Below are positions 29,336 to 44,434 of a stretch of DNA of 64,000 bases, piece after piece (position 1 is the first letter of the stretch; every line of letters starts with the position of its first letter). Under the pieces are notes generated by a model. It saw nothing but the letters and a program-made list of their open reading frames with translations. It searched no databases and was not told where the DNA came from. A program made the position numbers and the translations under genes. Origin of the DNA: Anaerolineae bacterium (GTDB lineage: Bacteria; Chloroflexota; Anaerolineae; Epilineales; JAHCIE01). Location: the NCBI GenBank assembly GCA_039810085.1, contig JBDHWG010000002.1, forward strand, positions 2,273-66,272, read 5' to 3'.

Positions 29336-30676
29336 CTACAGAATCTCCAGGTAGTGGTCGACCTCCCATTGGCTGACCTGGGTGCGGTACTCGTCCCACT
29401 CCTCTGTCTTCGCCCGAAGGAAAGCCTCGTAGGCGTGGCCGCCAAGGGCCTGCTGGATCAGTTCGTCCTTCGATAGCTCATCCAGCGCCTCCTTCAAGGA
29501 GCCGGGCAGCGTGGCAACACCGCGCTCTTGCAGCTCATCGGCATCCCAGTGGAACACGTCCTCCTCCACCGGCGGCGGGGGCTGTAGGTTCTGGTTGATG
29601 CCGTCCAGTCCGGCGTGGAGCATGGCGGCGAAGGCGAGGTACGGGTTGCAGCTGGGATCGGGGCAGCGCAGCTCGAGCCGGGTGCTCTGCTCGCGGCCCG
29701 GCGAGTAGCGCGGGATGCGGATCAGGGCCGAGCGATTGATCTGCGCCCAACACACGTAGACCGGCGCCTCGTAGCCGGGCACGAGCCGCTTGTACGAGTT
29801 GACCGTCGGCGCAACGAGAGCGGCCAGGGCGCGGGCGTGCTTCATCTGCCCCGCCATGAACGAGTAGGCCATCGGCGACAGCTTGTAAGGGTCATCGGCG
29901 CGGTAGAAGAGATTCTGGCCGTCGCGGAACAAACTCTGGTGCGTGTGCATGCCGCTGCCCGCGATGCCATAGATGGGCTTGGGCATGAATGTCGCGTACA
30001 GACCGTGGCGCTGCGCGATGGCCTTGACAGTGTACTTGAACGTCAGGGCATTGTCGGCGGATGTCAGGGCATCGGCGTAGCGGAAGTCGATTTCGTGCTG
30101 ACCCGGGCCGACTTCGTGGTGGATCATCTCCACCTCCAGCCCCATCTCCTCCAGCGCGCGCGTGATGTCCTGGCGCACGAGGCCCGCCTCATCGCGTGGC
30201 GAGAAGTCGAAGTAGCCGCCGACATCGTGGGGCGCAGGACGAATGCGCCCATTCTCCGGCGTGAACAGGTAGAACTCTAGCTCGACCCCGGTGTTGTACG
30301 TTATCCCTTGTTGGGCCGCCACCTCGACGGCGCGACGCAGAATCCGCCGCGGGTCGCCCTCGAACGGGTCACCATTGGGGGTAAAGATGTCACACAGTAG
30401 GCGGGCCACCTTGCCCGACTGCGCGCCCCAGGGAAGGACGCGGTAGGTGGCGGCGTCCGGCACCAGGAACATGTCGGATTCCTGGATGCGGGTAAACCCC
30501 TCGATGGATGAGCCGTCGAACCAGATACCCCGGTCGAAAGCCTCTACCAAACGCTCGACGGGCAGGGTCACACTCTTGATGATGCCCACCACGTCAATGA
30601 ACTGGAGATTGACGAACTGCACACCCTCGGTCTTGGCGCGCGCCAAGACATCTTGTTGTTCAGGCGTCAGGGCCAT
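29336..30676 (-). CDS. glnA: Glutamine synthetase, type I
   Basis: 446 aa from ATG 30676 (GGAGGAAACACAAT upstream): FVNLQFIDVVGIIKSV.., FDGSSIEGF.., GSGMHTHQSL.., NSYKRLVPGYEAP. Confidence 0.9.
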   Translation of the reverse strand: MALTPEQQDVLARAKTEGVQFVNLQFIDVVGIIKSVTLPVERLVEAFDRGIWFDGSSIEGFTRIQESDMFLVPDAATYRVLPWGAQSGKVARLLCDIFTPNGDPFEGDPRRILRRAVEVAAQQGITYNTGVELEFYLFTPENGRIRPAPHDVGGYFDFSPRDEAGLVRQDITRALEEMGLEVEMIHHEVGPGQHEIDFRYADALTSADNALTFKYTVKAIAQRHGLYATFMPKPIYGIAGSGMHTHQSLFRDGQNLFYRADDPYKLSPMAYSFMAGQMKHARALAALVAPTVNSYKRLVPGYEAPVYVCWAQINRSALIRIPRYSPGREQSTRLELRCPDPSCNPYLAFAAMLHAGLDGINQNLQPPPPVEEDVFHWDADELQERGVATLPGSLKEALDELSKDELIQQALGGHAYEAFLRAKTEEWDEYRTQVSQWEVDHYLEIL

Positions 30677-30742
30677 ATTGTGTTTCCTCCATGCATAAGA
30701 ATAGCCGCCCTGAGGCGGCCATTGCCCTGGTGGTATGCTGCG

Positions 30743-30771
30743 ATTGTACCCGAAGTCGGAACCAATGTCAA
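30743..30771 (-). promoter_or_regulatory. Near-consensus sigma70-type promoter of glnA
   Basis: The minus strand reads TTGACA - 17 nt - TACAAT, about 65 nt upstream of the glnA ATG. Confidence 0.55.
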
Positions 30772-30818
30772 AAAAGGTAATCGGGGGTGCGCTCCGCGAG
30801 AGGAGCACGCCCCCGATT
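30768..30818 (-). terminator. Rho-independent terminator of the rhodanese gene
   Basis: The minus strand reads AATCGGGGGCGTGCTCC..GGAGCGCACCCCCGATT followed by ACCTTTTTT. It starts about 20 nt after the TAG at 30840, not after the TGA at 30963. Confidence 0.7.
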
Positions 30819-30839
30819 CTGTGACGTTCTACCAAGCTG

Positions 30840-31409
30840 CTACTGCTGCGTCGGCAAGCCGGCCGTCTTCCAGGCTGCCCAGCCCCCCGTCAACGCATGG
30901 ACGTTCTTGTACCCCTTGTTGATCAAAATGTCTGCCTCACGGGCAGATTCTTGTTCGTTCGGTCAGGCACAATAGACGATAAGCGCCTTGTCCTGCGGCA
31001 GGCGGCTCAGATACTTATCCACGTCGGCGACTGGCACGCTGATCGCGCCCTTGACATGCCCTTGCGTGTACTCCTGAGCAGTGCGCGCGTCTACGAAGAG
31101 AACGTTCGGGTCGGTCATCTTCTGCTTAGCTTCATCGAGTGAGATACGCGGCACGTGCGCTAGCTGCGCGTTTGCCGCCGCAATCGCCGTGGGGTCGTAC
31201 TGCGGCGTGAGGACAATCTGCGGCGCTGCAGGGTTCTGAGCTGCTGGGTTCTGGGCCGCTGGATTCTGGGCGGGCGCGGCCGCTTGCGTCGTGGTACTGG
31301 TGGGTGAGACGGCTTTGCCGAGGACAAAGCCAAGCCCAAGCACCGCCAGGACGGCCACCACGCCAAGGATGCCGTATAAGACCCGGCGATCCATTCGAAT
31401 CGTGATCAT
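30840..31409 (-). CDS. Membrane-anchored rhodanese-like sulfurtransferase with an in-frame TGA at 30963..30965 (candidate Sec codon or nonsense mutation)
   Basis: The track ORF 30963..31409 ends ..QDKALIVYCA*. The same frame continues PNEQESAREADILINKGYKNVHALTGGWAAWKTAGLPTQQ to the TAG at 30840, completing the rhodanese fold. N-terminal TM segment and an AAQNP x3 linker. Confidence 0.6.
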
Positions 31410-31529
31410 TCACTTCTCCTTCCATGCGACGCCGGCATGCTCCGACTGCCGCGAAATTGCTATCCAACTATAGCCCAATCGCGTGAAAACGCTAGTTTTC
31501 GCGCACGACGCGCGTTGCGCTTCCCATCC

Positions 31530-32486: not shown

Positions 32487-32668
32487 CGCACAGTCCTCTC
32501 CTGGTTCGATGCAATTGTCATGTAGAGCCACATCTGCCGACTTCACAAGTGATGTAACGCAATACCCCGCATTGGGATACGGCCCAAACATTGACCTGCT
32601 CGGTTCCCCCACTATAATGGAGCCACTATGATGCATCGGTCCAGGCGGGTAAGCGAGCCAGGCTTGTA

Positions 32669-35176
32669 ATGAAACGAAGCCTTTCCAAGGGGCTGCCAAC
32701 CCTAGACGTTGTCCTGGTCGTCGCGCTCTTCGTCGGCCTGGCCCTGCTCTACAGCTTCGTGGCGCCTGTGTTCGAGGGCTTCGACGAGGTTTGGCACTAC
32801 GCCTTCGTCCAGCACGTCGCCAGCGGCGGGGGCCTTCCCCGCCAACCGCCCGACCAGTATGGTCACTTAGCAAGGCAGGAGGGCGGCCAGCCGCCCCTGT
32901 ACTATCTGCTCGGCGCGGCGCTCACTGCCTGGGTCCCCACCGACGACCTGCCGCTCTACCTCCGCCAGAACCCCCAGTTCCGCCCTATCCCGACGCCCTA
33001 CAAGGACAACCAGAACTACATCATCCACGGCGACGCCGAGGCCTTCCCGTATACCGGAACCGCCCTCGCCGTTCACCTGACGCGCCTGCTCTCCATCCTG
33101 CTTGGCGTCGGGACGCTCTTGTGCGTCTATGGCCTGGGGCGCAGGTTGTACCCCAGTCGGCGCAGCGTCGCCCTCGGCGCGATGCTCGTCACCGCGCTGA
33201 CGCCCGCCTTCATCTTCAGCAGCGCCCAGGTCAACAACGACATGCTCGTTACCTTCTTGAGCAGCCTGGCGCTCCTCCTGCTGTTGGACTTCGTCGCGCG
33301 TCCGCCGTCCTACCGCCGCGCCGTCGTGCTGGGCGTCGTGCTCGGCTGCGCGGCGCTCGCCAAGCTCAGCGGCCTGTTGCTGTGGCCGTTCGTGACGGTC
33401 GTGGCGCTAATTGTTTCTCCATGTCTTAGAGAGAGGGGTTATGTAGGTGATGGGCCTTCGGACCACGAAGGTCACGAAAGGACGCGAAAGGCGCGAAAAA
33501 GAGTCGCCTGGCGTCGACCTTTCGCGTTTTTCGCGTCCTTTCTGAGCCTTTCGTGGTCCAACCATTTACCCTACAGCGCAAGTCCTTCCATCGAAAGAAA
33601 GGCAACGCAAAGCCGCGGAGACGCAGGCGAGACAAAGGCCCAACGATCTTCTTCCTCTGTGCCTCTGCGCCTTTGCGTTACAAATCCATTCTCGAATCTC
33701 CGAAGATCAAGAGCCTCACTTGCGCGGCTCGTTGTCGTGTTTGCCGTGGCTATTGTCATATGCGGCTGGTGGTTTGCGCGCAACTGGCTGTTGTACGGCG
33801 ACCTGAGCGCGCTCAACATGCACCTGGCGATCATGGGACGGCGACCCGACGGGTTCGGTTTGCGCGAGGCGTTGGGCGAAATGGAGGGCTTACGCTGGTC
33901 GTACTGGGCGATGTTCGGCTGGTTCAACATCCCCGTGCCGACCCCGCTCTACCACGCCTACGACCTGGCGACGGCCCTGGGACTCGTCGGTCTCCTTATG
34001 TGTGTCGTACGCGCCATCATGCGGCGGCGCTGGGACAGGCTGTCGCCGCTGACCTACCTCGGCGCGTGGCTGCTGCTGGTCATCGTCGGCGTCGTGCGCT
34101 GGACGCTCACGACGCCGGGCAGCCAGGGCCGCCTGCTCTACCCGGCCATTCCGAGCATCGCCATCTTGCTGGTCGTCGGCTGGCTCGCCCTCGTTCCGCG
34201 CGGCGAGCGCGTGCAGCGGTGGGTGGTCACGGGTATTGGTATTGTGATGCTCGTGGTGGCGACCGCTATCCCGTTCGCCATCATCGCCCCAACCTACGCG
34301 CCGCCGCCTATCCTCTCACCTGACCAAATGGACAGCGCCGTCACGAACCACACCGACGTGACGTTCGAGAACGGCATTCGGCTGCTGGGGTACACGGTGG
34401 AACAGGCTAACGTTGCGCCGGGTAGCACGGCATGGGTCACGGCGTGCTGGGAGGGAACGGGGTCGGTCGATGAGGATGTCCTGGTCTACGTACACATGCT
34501 CACGCAGGACGACATCATTGCCGCGCAGAAGGATACCTACCACGGCCTGGGCATGTTCCCGTCGTCCCATTGGCCCGTGGGGGCGCGCTTCTGCGACCGC
34601 TACCCGCTGGCCGTCCCGGATACTGCGCCGGCCGCCGACAGCACGACACTGGCTGTCGGTCTCTACCACGCGAACGGCGAGCGCCTGACCGTAACCGACG
34701 GAGCCGGGCACGCCCCGGGCGATGAAGTGCGCTTCCCAGGGCCGAGCATCAGCGCCCGCCCCCAGGATAGCCTGACCTACGAGTGGGGGCACAAGCTGGG
34801 GCTGATTGAGTACGAGCTGGATCGGACCACGCTGCGGCCTGGCGAGAGCTTCAAGCTCGGCCTACGCTGGCAGGCGCTGGAAGCCATGTCGGCGGATTAC
34901 GCCGTGACAATCCAGGTCGTCGACGCAAACGGCGCTAAGATCGCCCAAGACGATGAGCCGCTGCGCAGCCGCAGCCAGCCCACGTCGGCATGGCGGGTCG
35001 GCACGACAATGAAGGACACGCGCACTATCGGGATTTCGCCGGATGCGCCGCCCGGCGTCTACGAGCTTCGCGTCGGCGTGTACGACTTCGACACCAAGCG
35101 CAACCTCCTGCCGTCCCGCGCCGGTGAGACGCTCAACCCCGGCCCCGTTCCGCTGTGGAAGCTGCGTGTCCAATAA
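32669..35176 (+). CDS. ArnT/PMT-like (GT39/GT83-type) membrane glycosyltransferase carrying an in-frame repeat insertion
   Basis: The polytopic N-terminal half (FDEVWHYAF.., QPPLYYLL..) is typical of the dolichyl-phosphate-mannose/ArnT-like family. It has a large C-terminal extracytoplasmic domain. Codons at about 33414..33717 are encoded by palindromic repeats. Confidence 0.75.
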   Translation: MKRSLSKGLPTLDVVLVVALFVGLALLYSFVAPVFEGFDEVWHYAFVQHVASGGGLPRQPPDQYGHLARQEGGQPPLYYLLGAALTAWVPTDDLPLYLRQNPQFRPIPTPYKDNQNYIIHGDAEAFPYTGTALAVHLTRLLSILLGVGTLLCVYGLGRRLYPSRRSVALGAMLVTALTPAFIFSSAQVNNDMLVTFLSSLALLLLLDFVARPPSYRRAVVLGVVLGCAALAKLSGLLLWPFVTVVALIVSPCLRERGYVGDGPSDHEGHERTRKARKRVAWRRPFAFFASFLSLSWSNHLPYSASPSIERKATQSRGDAGETKAQRSSSSVPLRLCVTNPFSNLRRSRASLARLVVVFAVAIVICGWWFARNWLLYGDLSALNMHLAIMGRRPDGFGLREALGEMEGLRWSYWAMFGWFNIPVPTPLYHAYDLATALGLVGLLMCVVRAIMRRRWDRLSPLTYLGAWLLLVIVGVVRWTLTTPGSQGRLLYPAIPSIAILLVVGWLALVPRGERVQRWVVTGIGIVMLVVATAIPFAIIAPTYAPPPILSPDQMDSAVTNHTDVTFENGIRLLGYTVEQANVAPGSTAWVTACWEGTGSVDEDVLVYVHMLTQDDIIAAQKDTYHGLGMFPSSHWPVGARFCDRYPLAVPDTAPAADSTTLAVGLYHANGERLTVTDGAGHAPGDEVRFPGPSISARPQDSLTYEWGHKLGLIEYELDRTTLRPGESFKLGLRWQALEAMSADYAVTIQVVDANGAKIAQDDEPLRSRSQPTSAWRVGTTMKDTRTIGISPDAPPGVYELRVGVYDFDTKRNLLPSRAGETLNPGPVPLWKLRVQ
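33460..33559. repeat. Family C palindromic repeat (GGACCACGAAGGNCACGAAAG..CGCGAAA ... TTTCGCG..CTTTCGTGGTCC), inside a CDS
   Basis: A second copy lies at 35190..35269. The arms are reverse complements of each other. Confidence 0.8.
33604..33679. repeat. Family D palindromic repeat (AACGCAAAGCCGCGGAGACGCAGG ... CCTCTGCGCCTTTGCGTT), inside a CDS
   Basis: An imperfect inverted repeat about 45 nt after the family C element, within the same ORF. Confidence 0.65.
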
Positions 35177-35318: not shown

Positions 35319-37463
35319 TCAACGCGAGCCGTTCTGCCCCTGCAACAGGTAGTCGTCCAAGACCAGGGCCTCGCGCGGCTGGAGTGTGACCGTTCGGTCC
35401 ACCAGCCGCCACGTCGTTGTTCCCCCCTCACCGCCGTCGAACCACACTTGCAGACGGTGCGCCCCCGGCGATAGGGGCCACTCCGCCAGAATGGCGGGCG
35501 CTTTGCCGGTGTACACGTCCGCCGGGACAAGCGGCTGCTCCAACAGCATGGCCCCATCCACCGCCACGCTTAACCGCGTCGGCCAGTTGGGCTGAACGCC
35601 ACCGGGCATCGTCGGCGCTGCGCCAAAGAAGGTTGCCGGGTTGGGCAGCACCACGGACAGCCGCGCTTCGTCCACCCCGAACGTCCGCATCGGAACTGCA
35701 CTCAGCGCGACGAGCACAGCAAACGTGGCGGCGACTAGCGCCAGGGCCACGCCGATGTTTCGCGGGGTCAGCCGAGGCGTCATGCGGCCTGGCAGCGTGA
35801 GCGGCACGTCGCCGCTGCCGACGTGGGCAGGCGGGGGCTTCAAAGCGTCGGCGAAGCGGTCGGGGGCCAGCCAGAACGTCGTGATCGGCGCGTTGGCGTA
35901 GGCGCGGCGCAGGCGCGGCACGCGCTGGCGACTGAGGCGTCCCTCCTCCCAAACGTTGCCCTCGCGTCGGCTGCAATCATCGGGGGGACAGCCGACGACA
36001 CGCACGTCCGCCGCGCCTAGCTCGAGTGTCTCGCTGACCAGGTTGGGCGACGCCGTGGCAACACACGGCAGGGCGATGACCTCGACCGTGCGCGGCCCAT
36101 TGACCGCCACGCCCACACCATCCGCGAGGTAGGCGTCCGCGCCGAAAAGGGCGTGGCGCTCGCAGGTATAGACAATCGTCACTGGAGTCGCCGGGGCGCG
36201 GCGGCGCGCCCGTTCGAGGCGCGTGCGCGCAGCGTTAGGGATGGCCTGGGGCGCAAGGACGCTCAGCGACACGGCCTGGAGATCGCACGAGCCGATGCAC
36301 ACCCCGCACGCGACGCACATGGCCGGGTTTTCGATGGCGATGTACTTGTGCGGCTTGCCGTCATGGCGCTCGACCATGCTGATGGCCTTATACGGGCAAT
36401 CCATGGCGCACTCGGTGCAGCCCGTACAGAGGTCTTTGTCAATGGCGATGGGGGGCGGCCCCTTGTGGCGGCGCGGCAGCCAGGGCAGAGCGACGGAGAC
36501 GGCCAGCAGCGCGCCCAGCGCCGCCCACAGCCACCACGCAGCGCCGTTGACTTCGAAGGGCAGGAAGAACAGGTAGAACGGGTCGATGCGCATCGGCGCA
36601 GGCAGCGCGCCAAAGTCGGCCTTGGGGAGCATGCCGACGGGGATGGCGATGGACAGGATGAGAACGAGGCCGAACACGCCCGCGACCCAGAGACGCGAGG
36701 GGAGAAACTTGGGCCGGCTGAGACGCACGATGTGCAGCCAGAACATCGCGCTGATGAGCACGAAGAGAAGGATGTGGAGCAGCAGGATAAGCCCGATGAC
36801 GATCCAGCCGCGATCCAGGCGCTCGGCGCTCAGAAGGTAGCCCAGGAAGCCCGGCCCCCACGGTGTCAGGGCATCCAGCCAGTGGGTGAAGCTGGCCGTA
36901 ATGAGCTGCGCGCGCTCGTCCCAGATGAGCCAGTAGCCGAGCACGCCGTCCACCCACAGCACGGCCATCATCACCACGCCCGTGACCCACGCCAGCCAGC
37001 GCGGGCCGCGAAAGCGGTCCATGAACAGCAGGCGGTAGCCGTGGAGCAGGCTCACGACCAGGGCGAAGATCGAGGCGTAGCGGTGCATCGCCCGAATGAC
37101 GTGGGCAAGGGGGTGGCTTTCGATGCGGGCAATGGCCGCAAACGTCGCTTCGAAGCCGAACTGCATGAAGAACGTCAGGTACAGGCCCGTCACCGCCACG
37201 ATGATCCAGAGCCACACGGCAATCGTCCCCGTGTGGTAGAAGGGGTTGAGCGTTTGCGCGCCGACGAGCCGGTTGACCGGCGTCTCGACGGCCAGAGCGA
37301 TGCGCTCCATGAGCCACAGCACGCGGTTACGCTGCGGCTTCCAGACCTGGGTCATAGGCTGAAGAATGTCACGGGCAGCGCCACTCGGCTCATCAGGAAG
37401 ACAATCTTTGTCCTGGTCTACGCCTTCCAAGAGGGTTGGCGGCTTGTCGCGTCGGAAGAACAC
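35319..37463 (-). CDS. Fusion protein: di-haem cytochrome b + 2x[4Fe-4S] ferredoxin + MvhD/FlpD-like domain + C-terminal TM and extracytoplasmic domain
   Basis: Two H-x13-H pairs in TM helices (MHRYASIFALVVSLLH and LHILLFVLISAMFWLH). CTGCTECAMDCP and CVACGVCIGSCD clusters. GAADVRVVGCPPDDCSRREGN resembles the MvhD/FlpD signature. GTG start with GAGGAC upstream. Confidence 0.75.
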   Translation of the reverse strand: MFFRRDKPPTLLEGVDQDKDCLPDEPSGAARDILQPMTQVWKPQRNRVLWLMERIALAVETPVNRLVGAQTLNPFYHTGTIAVWLWIIVAVTGLYLTFFMQFGFEATFAAIARIESHPLAHVIRAMHRYASIFALVVSLLHGYRLLFMDRFRGPRWLAWVTGVVMMAVLWVDGVLGYWLIWDERAQLITASFTHWLDALTPWGPGFLGYLLSAERLDRGWIVIGLILLLHILLFVLISAMFWLHIVRLSRPKFLPSRLWVAGVFGLVLILSIAIPVGMLPKADFGALPAPMRIDPFYLFFLPFEVNGAAWWLWAALGALLAVSVALPWLPRRHKGPPPIAIDKDLCTGCTECAMDCPYKAISMVERHDGKPHKYIAIENPAMCVACGVCIGSCDLQAVSLSVLAPQAIPNAARTRLERARRRAPATPVTIVYTCERHALFGADAYLADGVGVAVNGPRTVEVIALPCVATASPNLVSETLELGAADVRVVGCPPDDCSRREGNVWEEGRLSRQRVPRLRRAYANAPITTFWLAPDRFADALKPPPAHVGSGDVPLTLPGRMTPRLTPRNIGVALALVAATFAVLVALSAVPMRTFGVDEARLSVVLPNPATFFGAAPTMPGGVQPNWPTRLSVAVDGAMLLEQPLVPADVYTGKAPAILAEWPLSPGAHRLQVWFDGGEGGTTTWRLVDRTVTLQPREALVLDDYLLQGQNGSR

Positions 37464-41900: not shown

Positions 41901-42569
41901 TTAATCCAGGTGAGGCGGAGCGCCTCTGGCAAGGCTATGGCGGGCGGCCCAGGCAGCCGCCTCGGACCGGCTGCGGAGGTGCAGCTTGTCCAGGATGTTG
42001 CGCAGGTGCGCCTTGACCGTGTGCGGGGAGAGGGAGAGGGCGGCGCCGATTTCCTTGTTCGTCATGCCCTGGGCGATCAAGCGCAGGACGGCGCGCTCGC
42101 GCGCCGTCAGCTCCTCTCCGCCGGTCTCGCGTCGCTCGCTGTCTGTCGAGAGCGCGGCAAACTCATCCAGCAGCTTGGCCGCCATGCTCGGCGCGATGAT
42201 CGCCTCACCCGCGTTGACGCGGCGGATGGCATCCATCAGCTCGTCGCTGCCCATGCTCTTGAGGAGATAGCCGCGCGCGCCAGCGCGAACGGCGGCGAAC
42301 AGGTGCTCGGCGTTCTCGGACACGGTCAGCATGAGGATGTGCGTCTCCGGCTGCGCGAGGTGAATCTGGCGCGCGGCCTCGATGCCATCGACACGCGCCA
42401 TGTTGATGTCCAGCAGCGCCACATCCGGCCGTAGCGCCGCCGCGCGGGCAATCGCATCTGCCCCGTCGGATACGCTCGCGACGACGCTCATTTCTGCGGT
42501 GTCGTTCAGAACGCGCGCCAGACCTTCGCGGAACAGGCGGTGGTCGTCGGCGATCAGGATGCGGATCAT
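41901..42569 (-). CDS. NarL/LuxR-family two-component response regulator
   Basis: REC domain (MIRILIADDHRLFREG..DVALLDINM) plus a LuxR HTH (LTARERAVLRLIAQGMTNKEIGAALSLSPHTVKAH). Confidence 0.9.
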   Translation of the reverse strand: MIRILIADDHRLFREGLARVLNDTAEMSVVASVSDGADAIARAAALRPDVALLDINMARVDGIEAARQIHLAQPETHILMLTVSENAEHLFAAVRAGARGYLLKSMGSDELMDAIRRVNAGEAIIAPSMAAKLLDEFAALSTDSERRETGGEELTARERAVLRLIAQGMTNKEIGAALSLSPHTVKAHLRNILDKLHLRSRSEAAAWAARHSLARGAPPHLD

Positions 42570-44434
42570 GCGGCGCCTCGTTGGGGAATGGTGACGATGA
42601 TGCGGGTGCCCTGCCCGGTTCCGGTCACGATGCTAAAGCGGCCACCGAGACTCTGCGCCCGCTCGCGCATCGTCGCCATGCCGTGGCGCCGGTAGTCGCC
42701 GTTCGCCGCAAGGGCCTGGGGCAAACCGTCGCCGTTGTCGGTGACGGTCAGCTCCAGATAGTCGCCCTGCGCCACCAGGCGGACCTCGACGTGCCGGGCG
42801 TGGGCGTGCTTGCGCACGTTGGTGAGCGCCTCCTGGGCAATGCGGAGGAGTTGCAGCGTGACCTCCGGGTCTACCACCAGCCCTGGCGGGTCAGCGACGA
42901 AAGCCGTCTCGATGGCGGTCTGCTGGCGGAAGTGGGTCACGTAGTCCGCCAGCCGCGCCGCCACCTGCTCTGGGTGCTCGGCAGCCAGGCGCAGCCCATC
43001 GATGGCTTCCCGCGCATCGACGTAGGCGGCCCGAATGGACTCGCGCATCTCGCCCATCTCAAGAATCGCGTCCTCGTCGCGGCCAACCTTGACCAGCTTC
43101 TCCAGGCGCTCCATTTGCAAGCTAAGATAGGCCAGGGTTTGCGCCAGGCCATCGTGAATCTCACGCGACAGGCGATAGCGCTCCTCGAAGACCGCCATCT
43201 GTCGCACCTGTTCGTAGAGCTGCGCGTTGCGGACGGCCAGGGCAATCTGGTTTGCTGCCGTCGTCAGCAGATCGGTGTGGCGGGCGGACAGCGTCCGGGG
43301 CCGCGTTGCGCCCAGGAACAGCGCGCCGAACACTAAGCCCTCGGTCACCAGCGGCGCAGCCGCAGCCGACCGTAGGTCCCCTGTTGGCTCCGGCAGCGTC
43401 GCGACGATCACCGGGGCGCCTGTCAGCGTTTTCTGCGCCATCTCCAGCGCTAGCTCGAAGCGGGCGTCGGTCATGCCGCTCCCCAGCCCACGGGAGGCGC
43501 GGCACGCCCAGGCATGGGACGCGGCATCGTACAGGAACAAGGCCGCCGCGTCCACATCCCAACCGGCGGCTGTGATTTGCAAGACCTGGCTCGCAAAGTG
43601 GTCCAGGTTCGCCTCGCTCGCCGCCGCCTGATCCAGCGCGTGCAGCGTCGTCATCTGGCGCGCTCGCAGCCGTCGGCTGTCCAGCATCCCGGCGATTTCC
43701 CCTTGCACAACATTGAGTAAGCGCACCTGGGACTCCGGCGGACCATCCGCCGAGGGGAAGTAGGCCAGGATCGCCCCGACGCGCTCTTTCTCGCGCACGA
43801 TGGGCATGCACACCGCCGACGCGATACCTTCCGCTTCCGCCAATGTCTCAAGCCCGACAAACAGCGGGCAGCCGCTCCGCGTCTGGGCACGCAGCGTCGT
43901 GCATTCACGGCAACGCGTCGTGTCGATGCCCGCGTCCATCTGGGCGCGCAACGCGTGGACATACTGCTCGCTCAGGCCCCACGCCACGTCGAGCTGCACG
44001 CGGTTGGCCGCGTCGTCGAACGTCACGATGGACGATGCCTGCGCCCCAATCAACTCGATAGGCGCCTGGGCAGCCAGCTCCAGCACCGTCTCCTCACTGT
44101 CGGCCGCCGCGATCTGCTCCCCAATGCGGTTGAGCGACAGCAGCCGCGCGTGGTTCGTCTCAAGCTCGGCGTAAGCAACTTTCAGGTGCTCCTCGGCCTG
44201 ACTGTGCCGCTCCAGGGCGTTCGCCAGCAAACTCAGCCCGATCCATGCAGTAATGCTGCCCACAATGCCAAGGATAAGGACATCGAGTGTGTCGCTCAAG
44301 GAGAACGCGCTTGGCCCTAGCCAGGAGACCAGCACGGAGCGCTCTAGCGCGGCGACGGCAAACACGCCCAGTGGGAGGAGCCAGCGTAGGCGGCGAAGCT
44401 GGATATGCAGCGGGACATGGGAGAAAAACGGCAT
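42566..44434 (-). CDS. GAF-domain sensor histidine kinase (HisKA_3 / NarX-like)
   Basis: Two N-terminal TM segments and GAF-like regions. H-box REIHDGLAQTL. HATPase motifs (NVRKHAHA.., DNGDG.., GMATMRERA). Its stop overlaps the RR start as ATGA. Confidence 0.85.
   Translation of the reverse strand: MPFFSHVPLHIQLRRLRWLLPLGVFAVAALERSVLVSWLGPSAFSLSDTLDVLILGIVGSITAWIGLSLLANALERHSQAEEHLKVAYAELETNHARLLSLNRIGEQIAAADSEETVLELAAQAPIELIGAQASSIVTFDDAANRVQLDVAWGLSEQYVHALRAQMDAGIDTTRCRECTTLRAQTRSGCPLFVGLETLAEAEGIASAVCMPIVREKERVGAILAYFPSADGPPESQVRLLNVVQGEIAGMLDSRRLRARQMTTLHALDQAAASEANLDHFASQVLQITAAGWDVDAAALFLYDAASHAWACRASRGLGSGMTDARFELALEMAQKTLTGAPVIVATLPEPTGDLRSAAAAPLVTEGLVFGALFLGATRPRTLSARHTDLLTTAANQIALAVRNAQLYEQVRQMAVFEERYRLSREIHDGLAQTLAYLSLQMERLEKLVKVGRDEDAILEMGEMRESIRAAYVDAREAIDGLRLAAEHPEQVAARLADYVTHFRQQTAIETAFVADPPGLVVDPEVTLQLLRIAQEALTNVRKHAHARHVEVRLVAQGDYLELTVTDNGDGLPQALAANGDYRRHGMATMRERAQSLGGRFSIVTGTGQGTRIIVTIPQRGAA

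Follow-up and report, generated by a model that had tools for sequence, protein, structure and literature searches.

Selenoproteins of the rhodanese type have been known since 2005, and rhodanese-type selenoprotein families have already been reported (PMC13188914, PMC9312934); annotation pipelines nevertheless still shorten the corresponding genes. In NCBIfam such proteins are collected in the family NF041203 (rhodanese_LYCAU, "rhodanese-related (seleno)protein"). The gene considered here lies on the minus strand, at 31409..30840, of a 64,000-nucleotide stretch of DNA from an Anaerolineae bacterium (GCA_039810085.1, contig JBDHWG010000002.1, positions 2,273 to 66,272), the whole of which is referred to as the window. 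A reading of this stretch without database searches, hereafter the original prediction, had pointed to a rhodanese gene interrupted by a single in-frame TGA and followed by a hairpin resembling a selenocysteine insertion sequence (SECIS), and had stated, correctly in view of the two reports cited, that rhodanese-related sulfurtransferases occur among prokaryotic selenoproteins. Our analysis puts the probability that 31409..30840(-) is one intact selenoprotein gene, encoding 189 residues with selenocysteine (Sec, U) at the TGA, at about 0.9. Judged by its motif and profile match, it is a new, slightly divergent member of the known selenoprotein family.

When U is replaced by C for scoring, NF041203 is the top model for the read-through protein (E 7.7e-31). 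The two have in common a single rhodanese domain, the motif Y-C-A-U-P-x-E, in which Sec takes the catalytic site and a Cys stands two residues upstream of it, and the same SECIS register and loop, with G and then U or G at nucleotides 26–27; locus L099, a checked core member of NF041203, was also found by the DNA pattern with which the other family members described below were collected. The window motif, however, reads V-Y-C-A-U (V-Y-C-A-U-P-N-E), unlike the L-Y-C-A-U of the family name, and its loop UPNEQES has Glu at a position held by Thr or Ser in the family. While L099 comprises 130 aa with a signal-peptide-like hydrophobic N-terminus, and stems from a metagenome-assembled genome (MAG) labelled Deltaproteobacteria, the window protein belongs to the class Anaerolineae and combines, in its 189 aa, a predicted transmembrane anchor with a 30-residue low-complexity linker.

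Among other rhodaneses, GlpE and the exported PspE resemble the window protein in fold, domain size and position of the catalytic residue. Their models score only 52.8 and 37.4, respectively, below a cutoff of 102 in both cases, and the window protein differs by its acidic active-site loop (P-N-E-Q-E, against a usually basic or neutral one) and by a nucleophile predicted to be Sec and not Cys. At the RNA level, the closest comparison is with the SECIS of Escherichia coli fdhF and fdnG, likewise a hairpin within the coding sequence, directly 3′ of the UGA, with G-U in the apical loop at a fixed distance. The fdhF SECIS is a longer, bulged helix, whereas the window stem has 6 bp of unrelated sequence, and binding of SelB is in this case a prediction. 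Fusions of DedA (VTT) proteins to a rhodanese domain, found in Proteobacteria and Nitrospirota, are 34–48% identical to the window protein in the rhodanese domain and have the same V-Y-C-A-x-P-N-E context, but with Cys (TGY) instead of the TGA, a loop one residue shorter (NEASAA versus NEQESAR), and a multi-pass VTT/DedA domain in place of the single anchor. Such fusions have been recorded as unexplained (PMC10127716).

The 148-codon open reading frame (ORF) in the window opens at ATG 31409 and ends ..QDKALIVYCA at the TGA, past which the frame reads PNEQESAREADILINKGYKNVHALTGGWAAWKTAGLPTQQ without interruption as far as the TAG, that is, for 40 further sense codons. The intrinsic terminator is placed 3′ of this TAG and not of the TGA: a G+C-rich stem (30818..30779) is followed by UACCUUUUUU, and the 91-nt stretch that contains both folds at −36.4 kcal/mol (z −3.6). 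A consensus terminator scan of the window did not list the terminator at 30818..30770, probably because of its stem length. In all of this the sequence and the fold agree with the original prediction, which had described the halted ORF, the open tail and, just past the TAG, the sole strong terminator. A sigma-70-like promoter candidate for the downstream glnA gene, with agreement at 11 of 12 consensus positions, would set the rhodanese gene apart, at its 3′ end, as a separate transcription unit.

The tail had been assigned to the C-terminal part of a rhodanese, and the profile search bears this out. Pfam Rhodanese (PF00581) matches the read-through product with 70.7 bits (gathering threshold 22.2, E 1.6e-19) over profile positions 2–101 of 102, straight across the TGA. 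In phmmer alignments with solved structures, the TGA column coincides with the Cys of CGGGFRS (6mxv) and of CAGRTRS (1yt8, domain 2); the alignments thereby place it at the catalytic residue of the fold. When the genome collection was searched with the C-substituted domain, 80 loci were obtained, mostly from Burkholderiales and one from Nitrospirota, all of them with VYCACPNE. Only Cys forms are recovered in this way, since the back-translated VYCACPNE pattern cannot match TGA. The 78 distinct VYCACPNE homologues have Cys in the TGA column and carry the Y-C-x-C-P-x-E motif named in the original prediction; they form the Cys side of a Sec/Cys pair whose other side is the TGA of the 118 YC[AT]-TGA genes presented below. 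Two Cys-form loci were examined, and their rhodanese domains are C-terminal parts of DedA/VTT membrane proteins.

The hairpin begins 15 nt past the TGA, as previously described, and its loop (30941..30937) occupies nt 25–29 from the U of UGA, including G30940 and U30939. The 51 nt beginning with the UGA form a fold of −12.5 kcal/mol (z −3.3), and none of 200 shuffled sequences folds as well. Bacterial SECIS elements have been characterized by a loop of 3–9 nt, an upper stem of 4–16 bp, a UGA–loop spacing of 16–37 nt, and a G in the first two loop positions that is usually followed by G or U (PMC13188914). With a 5-nt loop, a 6-bp stem, G at loop position 2 and a spacing of 21 nt, the window element agrees with all of the published criteria. 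A covariance-model check, proposed at the outset, was run with a model built from 118 other genes, the window lineage being left out. It hits 30965..30918(-) with 33.1 bits (E=1.4e-7), the sole significant match in the window, where the runner-up reaches 11.8 bits (E=0.2). A gathering-threshold scan of the window with Rfam gave no match; to our knowledge, Rfam has no bacterial SECIS family, so this empty scan is uninformative. The consensus terminator scan listed the hairpin itself (30931..30948, both strands) as terminator-like because it is followed by CAUUUUGAUC in the window. Orthologues lack a U-rich tail 3′ of the hairpin (CACGCUG and similar), and the resemblance to a terminator is probably incidental.

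The wider family also bears on the nature of the hairpin. An exact search of a species-representative genome collection with the DNA pattern Y-C-[A/T]-TGA-P-x-E-x-x-[S]-A yielded at least 120 loci. Among the matches listed, 118 of 120 are rhodanese genes that continue in frame past the TGA with ..SA[R/G/S]xA...GG(F/L/W)xAW..G(Y/L)P; about 70 matches to the pattern would be expected by chance, but there is no reason for chance matches to be rhodanese genes. The hosts belong to at least eight phyla, among them Acidobacteriota, Chloroflexota (many Anaerolineae), Desulfobacterota, Methylomirabilota, Gemmatimonadota, Verrucomicrobiota and Armatimonadota. In alignments of 118–123 family members, numbered without gaps from the U of UGA, 98% of the cells of the stem (nt 20–24 with 30–34) are paired, versus 21–60% in controls with a displaced partner. 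Both sides have changed in three of the five stem pairs (e.g., C-G to U-A at 21:33 in 19 sequences), and the observed covariation score is reached by none of 500 shuffles. The search pattern constrained only nt 19–23, and left the 3′ arm and the loop free. Likewise, the TGT codon of Cys147 is invariant among the orthologues of the window gene, while the invariance of this Cys in the 118 family members follows by construction, TGY having been demanded there by the pattern. The original prediction had likened the geometry of the hairpin to that of the fdhF SECIS; the hairpin fits the bacterial model and covaries across the family.

The loop tells the same story through codon choice. G26 is present in 123 of 123 sequences, even though the residue encoded is Arg, Gly, Ser or Trp, and position 27 is U in 100 and G in 23 of them, never A or C. 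Where the loop codon specifies Arg, it is CGT in 59 cases, CGG in 18, AGG in one and CGC in none, while elsewhere in the same genes CGC accounts for 38% and CGT for 10% (Fisher p=3e-30). Gly is encoded by GGT in 19 of 21 cases (18% elsewhere in the same genes), and Ser by AGT in 17 of 17 (9% elsewhere). The choice of the loop codon is selection on RNA, and sequence comparison thereby demonstrates that the hairpin is maintained at the RNA level. A second lineage recovered by the protein search, with a protein composed of a zinc ribbon, a transmembrane segment and a rhodanese domain (P0007/L092), has an element in the same register, with the loop CGUGC on a stem for which other codons are used (AGC GCC ... 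GGC UGC U).

Several observations weigh against the assignment as a Sec rhodanese. First, NF041203 gives the window gene 106.4 bits, short of its curated cutoff of 115; the next-best model reaches 57.7. Among the forms tested, the cutoff is passed only by L099, the deltaproteobacterial form with a hydrophobic N-terminus (176.7 bits). The others are orthologue L001 (104.7), P0007/L092 (86.2), the VTT fusion L104 from a MAG labelled Acidobacteria (85.1), the trypsin fusion L107 from a Candidatus Rokuibacteriota MAG (79.1), the Cys-form DedA–rhodanese fusion L012 (69.4), and L197, a form with a hydrophobic N-terminus from an Acidobacteriota MAG (64.2). Second, within the five orthologues alone the hairpin varies only once, from A to G, with the pair kept as U-G. 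Its codons also encode the conserved residues S-A-R-x-A, so part of its conservation is protein-level constraint. The extension of the hairpin by further pairs, which the original prediction had allowed for, is seen in the window's own fold but is not conserved in the orthologues, and the extended lower stem was for this reason dropped as part of the element. In-register SECIS-like hairpins are rarer in the DedA(VTT)–rhodanese fusions, yet a lenient hairpin criterion is passed by 42% of the Cys forms, as a matter of chance, compared with 91% of the Sec forms. Finally, neither the 64-kb window nor the 20-kb orthologous loci contain selA, selB, selD or tRNA-Sec: tblastn with E. coli SelA, SelB and SelD gave no match in the window and the collected loci, and ARAGORN detected no tRNA of any kind in the window.

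In the wider search for Sec machinery, the E. coli SelA protein as query returned Enterobacterales only. A SelA motif scan, on the other hand, gave 120 loci, Anaerolineae included, and a profile derived from them led to more than 120 SelA clusters. SelA is common in MAGs of the class Anaerolineae (L259, L281, L310, L312, L323, L324); the candidates that were traced belong to assemblies other than STL-CHL20, STL-CHL21 and STL-CHL22, the three that contain orthologues of the window gene. In one family member, L214, from a MAG labelled Deltaproteobacteria, a tRNA-Sec gene and the YCA-TGA rhodanese gene are about 5 kb apart. As to the ordinary use of TGA, the histidine kinase gene at 42566..44434(-) ends at a TGA three residues past its HATPase_c domain, and the stops of the 38 non-overlapping window ORFs of at least 200 aa, a set picked mechanically that may include spurious frames, are TAA in 15, TAG in 12 and TGA in 11. 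With a TGA-terminated histidine kinase and about one-third of the long ORFs ending in TGA, this codon is otherwise a stop here; stop usage thus indicates that TGA is not reassigned in the window organism. A GC3-based screen of the window for other genes with in-frame TGA was dominated by noise at 64% G+C. The share of TAA is high for DNA of this composition.

A few further features of selA loci were observed. In three Anaerolineae-type loci (L341:8001-12226, L343:2481-5843 and L345:8001-11733), a Peptidase_M24 gene lies 3′ of selA. It abuts selA in L345, while a gap or small ORFs intervene in L343 and L341. A TsaD gene also follows in two of the three, directly after Peptidase_M24 in L345. No selB adjoins selA in these three loci, unlike in the selAB operon of Proteobacteria.

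Among the alternatives to Sec insertion, the one that survives best is read-through of the UGA without Sec, by near-cognate insertion of Trp, Cys or Arg stimulated by the hairpin, or a regulated mixture with a mainly truncated product. RNA structures 3′ of a stop codon are, in general, able to promote its read-through, and the lack of Sec machinery in the window and the orthologous loci would be in line with such a mechanism. Moreover, recoding by UGA and SECIS competes with termination by RF2, so that some truncated product is expected in any case; the recoding efficiency in vivo in E. coli has been reported as 30–40% (PMC4513850). However, recoding affects the column of the catalytic Cys, in which homologues have Cys as the other residue, and this pattern marks Sec rather than generic read-through. 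The loop also retains, against codon bias, the G and the following U or G demanded by the bacterial SECIS model, curation places the family among the selenoproteins (NF041203; PMC13188914), and phyla with the TGA form also appear among the SelA loci. Non-Sec read-through is accordingly regarded as improbable, and from the column and the loop we infer that the inserted residue is Sec.

The original prediction had itself offered another alternative, a recent pseudogene or an assembly or sequencing error, in which a single TGC/TGT-to-TGA change would have left 40 codons no longer expressed. The TGA is indeed one nucleotide from a Cys codon, gene callers halt at it, and public orthologues are annotated with 141–144 aa. 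These orthologues, however, speak against the proposal. A protein search with the read-through sequence produced seven matches in all, and crowding of the word-based candidate list by the low-complexity linker is suspected to lie behind this scarcity; more Cys and Sec homologues came from the DNA-level scans instead. Five of the matches are truncated proteins of 141–148 aa, each ending in ..YCA: P0001, 99% identical, is essentially the truncated ORF of the window itself, and P0002–P0005 are four orthologues with 74–80% identity to the window protein. Their DNA was obtained from three Anaerolineae MAGs, STL-CHL22, STL-CHL21 and STL-CHL20 (GCA_046328505.1, GCA_046328525.1 and GCA_046328535.1, respectively), and from read-archive and ENA contigs. 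The alignment of homologues for which the original prediction had called has TGA in this column in all five orthologous sequences including the window (the others being L001, L004, L007 and L010), and Cys in the 78 VYCACPNE homologues. In every orthologue copy the TGA is followed in frame by PSEQESAREADTL[IM][SG]KGYKNVHALLGGWAAWKTAGLPTQ and then by a stop, at the same codon as the TAG of the window or one codon earlier. By the Nei–Gojobori method, the ratio of nonsynonymous to synonymous divergence (dN/dS) is 0–0.22 for the 39 codons past the TGA and 0.06–0.18 for the 65 codons 5′ of it. The tail behaves like the upstream part; it is therefore translated, and its constraint equals that on the remainder of the domain.

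The four other lineages were assembled independently, and synonymous divergence (dS) among the five species-level lineages amounts to 0.26–0.95. With the same TGA kept over this distance, purifying selection on the tail, and TGA at the same column in at least 118 more genes from other phyla, a pseudogene or error can hardly be entertained; at the level of sequence, the comparison demonstrates conserved recoding of the TGA and translation of the tail. Gene order is also conserved, with an AstE/AspA-like gene, the rhodanese gene, in some cases a DUF7670 gene, glnA and the ornithine cyclodeaminase (OCD) gene. The three MAG orthologues were deposited as "rhodanese-like domain-containing protein" of 141–144 aa (MFN8475633.1, MFN8484433.1 and MFN8498421.1), truncated records which the sub-cutoff NF041203 score fits. 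An equally slight chance is given to two separate products, a 148-residue N-terminal protein and an independently started C-terminal peptide: this is a formal possibility alone, as no start codon or ribosome-binding site is found past the TGA (the first codons are CCG AAC GAA), a fold cut at the active-site loop would lose its last helix–strand unit, the Pfam match needs both halves, and the frame is strictly held across the TGA in 123 of 123 sequences.

For a Sec rhodanese, the sequence suggests the following architecture and mechanism. From its N-terminus onward, the product would comprise a membrane anchor or signal sequence, then a low-complexity linker and finally one rhodanese domain. 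Hydrophobicity (Kyte–Doolittle, 19-residue mean) peaks at 2.57 over residues 13–31, and residues 11–31 are best viewed as a signal anchor or a long signal peptide which, by the positive-inside rule, would place the rhodanese domain outside the cytoplasm; G-K-A/V-S-P could be a candidate signal-peptidase site. The linker varies in length among orthologues, whose alignment is gapped only there, and this variation points to quick evolution by repeat gain and loss. In the window it has three tandem AAQNP units, while the orthologues have other Q/S/A/P-rich versions of other lengths.

During translation, the hairpin at 30947..30931 would act as a bacterial SECIS: SelB-GTP-Sec-tRNA(Sec) is expected to bind the apical loop at G30940 and U30939 and to deliver Sec when the UGA (30965..30963) is in the A site. 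Translation would then run on to the TAG, and transcription would end at the terminator just past it. The selenocysteine encoded by this UGA is the predicted catalytic nucleophile. The product probably works like other rhodaneses, its active-site chalcogen carrying sulfane sulfur or selenium, or a redox equivalent, and Cys147, placed at C-x-U, would be the likely resolving partner by forming a selenenylsulfide with Sec. The active-site loop U-P-N-E-Q-E-S is acidic and has no Arg of the kind seen in phosphatase-type or arsenate-reductase-type rhodanese folds. Because of this loop and the sub-cutoff scores with GlpE and PspE, only a general mechanism is committed to, that of a rhodanese-type chalcogen carrier or redox site, which is the probable role.

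Knowledge of selenoprotein families is left unchanged by this gene, and the main value lies in the correction of annotation and in the SECIS data set. Gene callers cut the window gene at its active site, and the orthologue records lack the catalytic residue and the last 40 residues; any functional or structural inference from them would rest on an incomplete protein. As most of the tested forms score 64–106 bits with NF041203, the sole curated model, against its cutoff of 115, current pipelines likely annotate them as truncated, and much of the YC[AT]-U-P-x-E Sec-rhodanese group may be mis-annotated in this way. At least 118 species-level genomes of many phyla share this Sec motif and SECIS, often in fusions with transporters, and the more than 120 in-register SECIS elements form a clean natural data set on SelB recognition. 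The class Anaerolineae gains a likely extracytoplasmic selenoprotein, and the gene indicates Sec decoding in the window lineage.

The domain architectures of the family are diverse: the rhodanese domain occurs after a signal-peptide-like hydrophobic N-terminus and after VTT/DedA, Na+/H+ exchanger, amino-acid permease and trypsin-like protease domains. The fusions comprise VTT/DedA in L104 and L149, the Na+/H+ exchanger in L129, L167 and L168, the amino-acid permease in L122 and the trypsin-like protease in L107, so that the Sec rhodanese is found repeatedly as the C-terminal part of membrane transporters, or of a secreted protease followed by a transmembrane segment. From the charge flanking the transmembrane segment, some fusions seem to have the rhodanese domain in the cytoplasm and others on the outer side of the membrane. 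A more speculative proposal, to which we attach little confidence, is that the Anaerolineae gene represents a distinct subfamily of exported, membrane-tethered C-x-U Sec rhodaneses, with YC[A/T]-U-P-x-E as a modular selenoenzyme unit on membrane machinery. One possibility for a shared membrane function of this unit is transport-coupled handling of sulfane sulfur or of selenium species. In a Desulfohalobiaceae MAG (L146:3854 onward), the frame runs 386 codons past the Sec codon instead of about 40, which points to an additional domain on the C-terminal side of the rhodanese.

Table 1. Features of the rhodanese gene and its surroundings (window coordinates unless a locus is named).
Feature	Position	Strand	Basis
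Shine–Dalgarno-like AAGGAG, 6 nt 5′ of the ATG	31416..31421	-	direct sequence reading
Coding part 1, 148 codons, from the ATG to the Ala codon preceding the TGA	30966..31409	-	sequence and translation
N-terminal hydrophobic segment, residues 11–31, after R5, R8 and R9	31317..31379	-	Kyte–Doolittle
Low-complexity Ser/Thr/Ala/Gln/Pro linker, residues 35–64	31218..31307	-	translation
Rhodanese homology domain, residues 91–182, spanning the TGA	30864..31139	-	Pfam PF00581
TGT codon of Cys147, the C of the C-x-U motif, at −2 from the Sec residue	30969..30971	-	
In-frame TGA, read as selenocysteine (predicted), residue 149	30963..30965	-	catalytic Cys position of the rhodanese fold
Coding part 2, 40 codons, PNEQES...LPTQQ	30843..30962	-	translation
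SECIS hairpin, 6-bp stem UCUGCC/GGCAGA with 5-nt loop CGUGA	30931..30947	-	fold and family covariation
True stop codon TAG	30840..30842	-	direct reading
Intrinsic terminator, 17-bp stem, 6-nt loop, U6 run	30770..30818	-	folding
Sigma-70-like promoter TTGACA-17 nt-TACAAT for downstream glnA	30743..30771	-	consensus match only
tRNA-Sec and YCA-TGA rhodanese gene pair in L214	L214:292-388 and L214:5439-5486		

The surroundings of the gene differ in some respects between the window and the related MAGs. A 122-aa DUF7670 gene lies between the rhodanese gene and glnA in two of them (L001:10690-11058 and L004:10817-11185); it is absent from L007 and from the window, where the corresponding space (30676..30840) contains the terminator and the glnA promoter only. 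In all three related MAGs, a 612-aa Tricorn-N/peptidase S9 gene (L001:6864-8702) lies between the PMT-like glycosyltransferase and AstE/AspA-like genes. It is missing at 32490..32670 of the window, where the flanking genes are adjacent and divergent. Farther along, the window encodes at 35319..37463(-) a 714-aa fusion of cytochrome b, 4Fe-4S ferredoxin and FlpD (MvhD-like) domains, an unusual membrane-bound electron-transfer architecture that is kept in L004 (716 aa).

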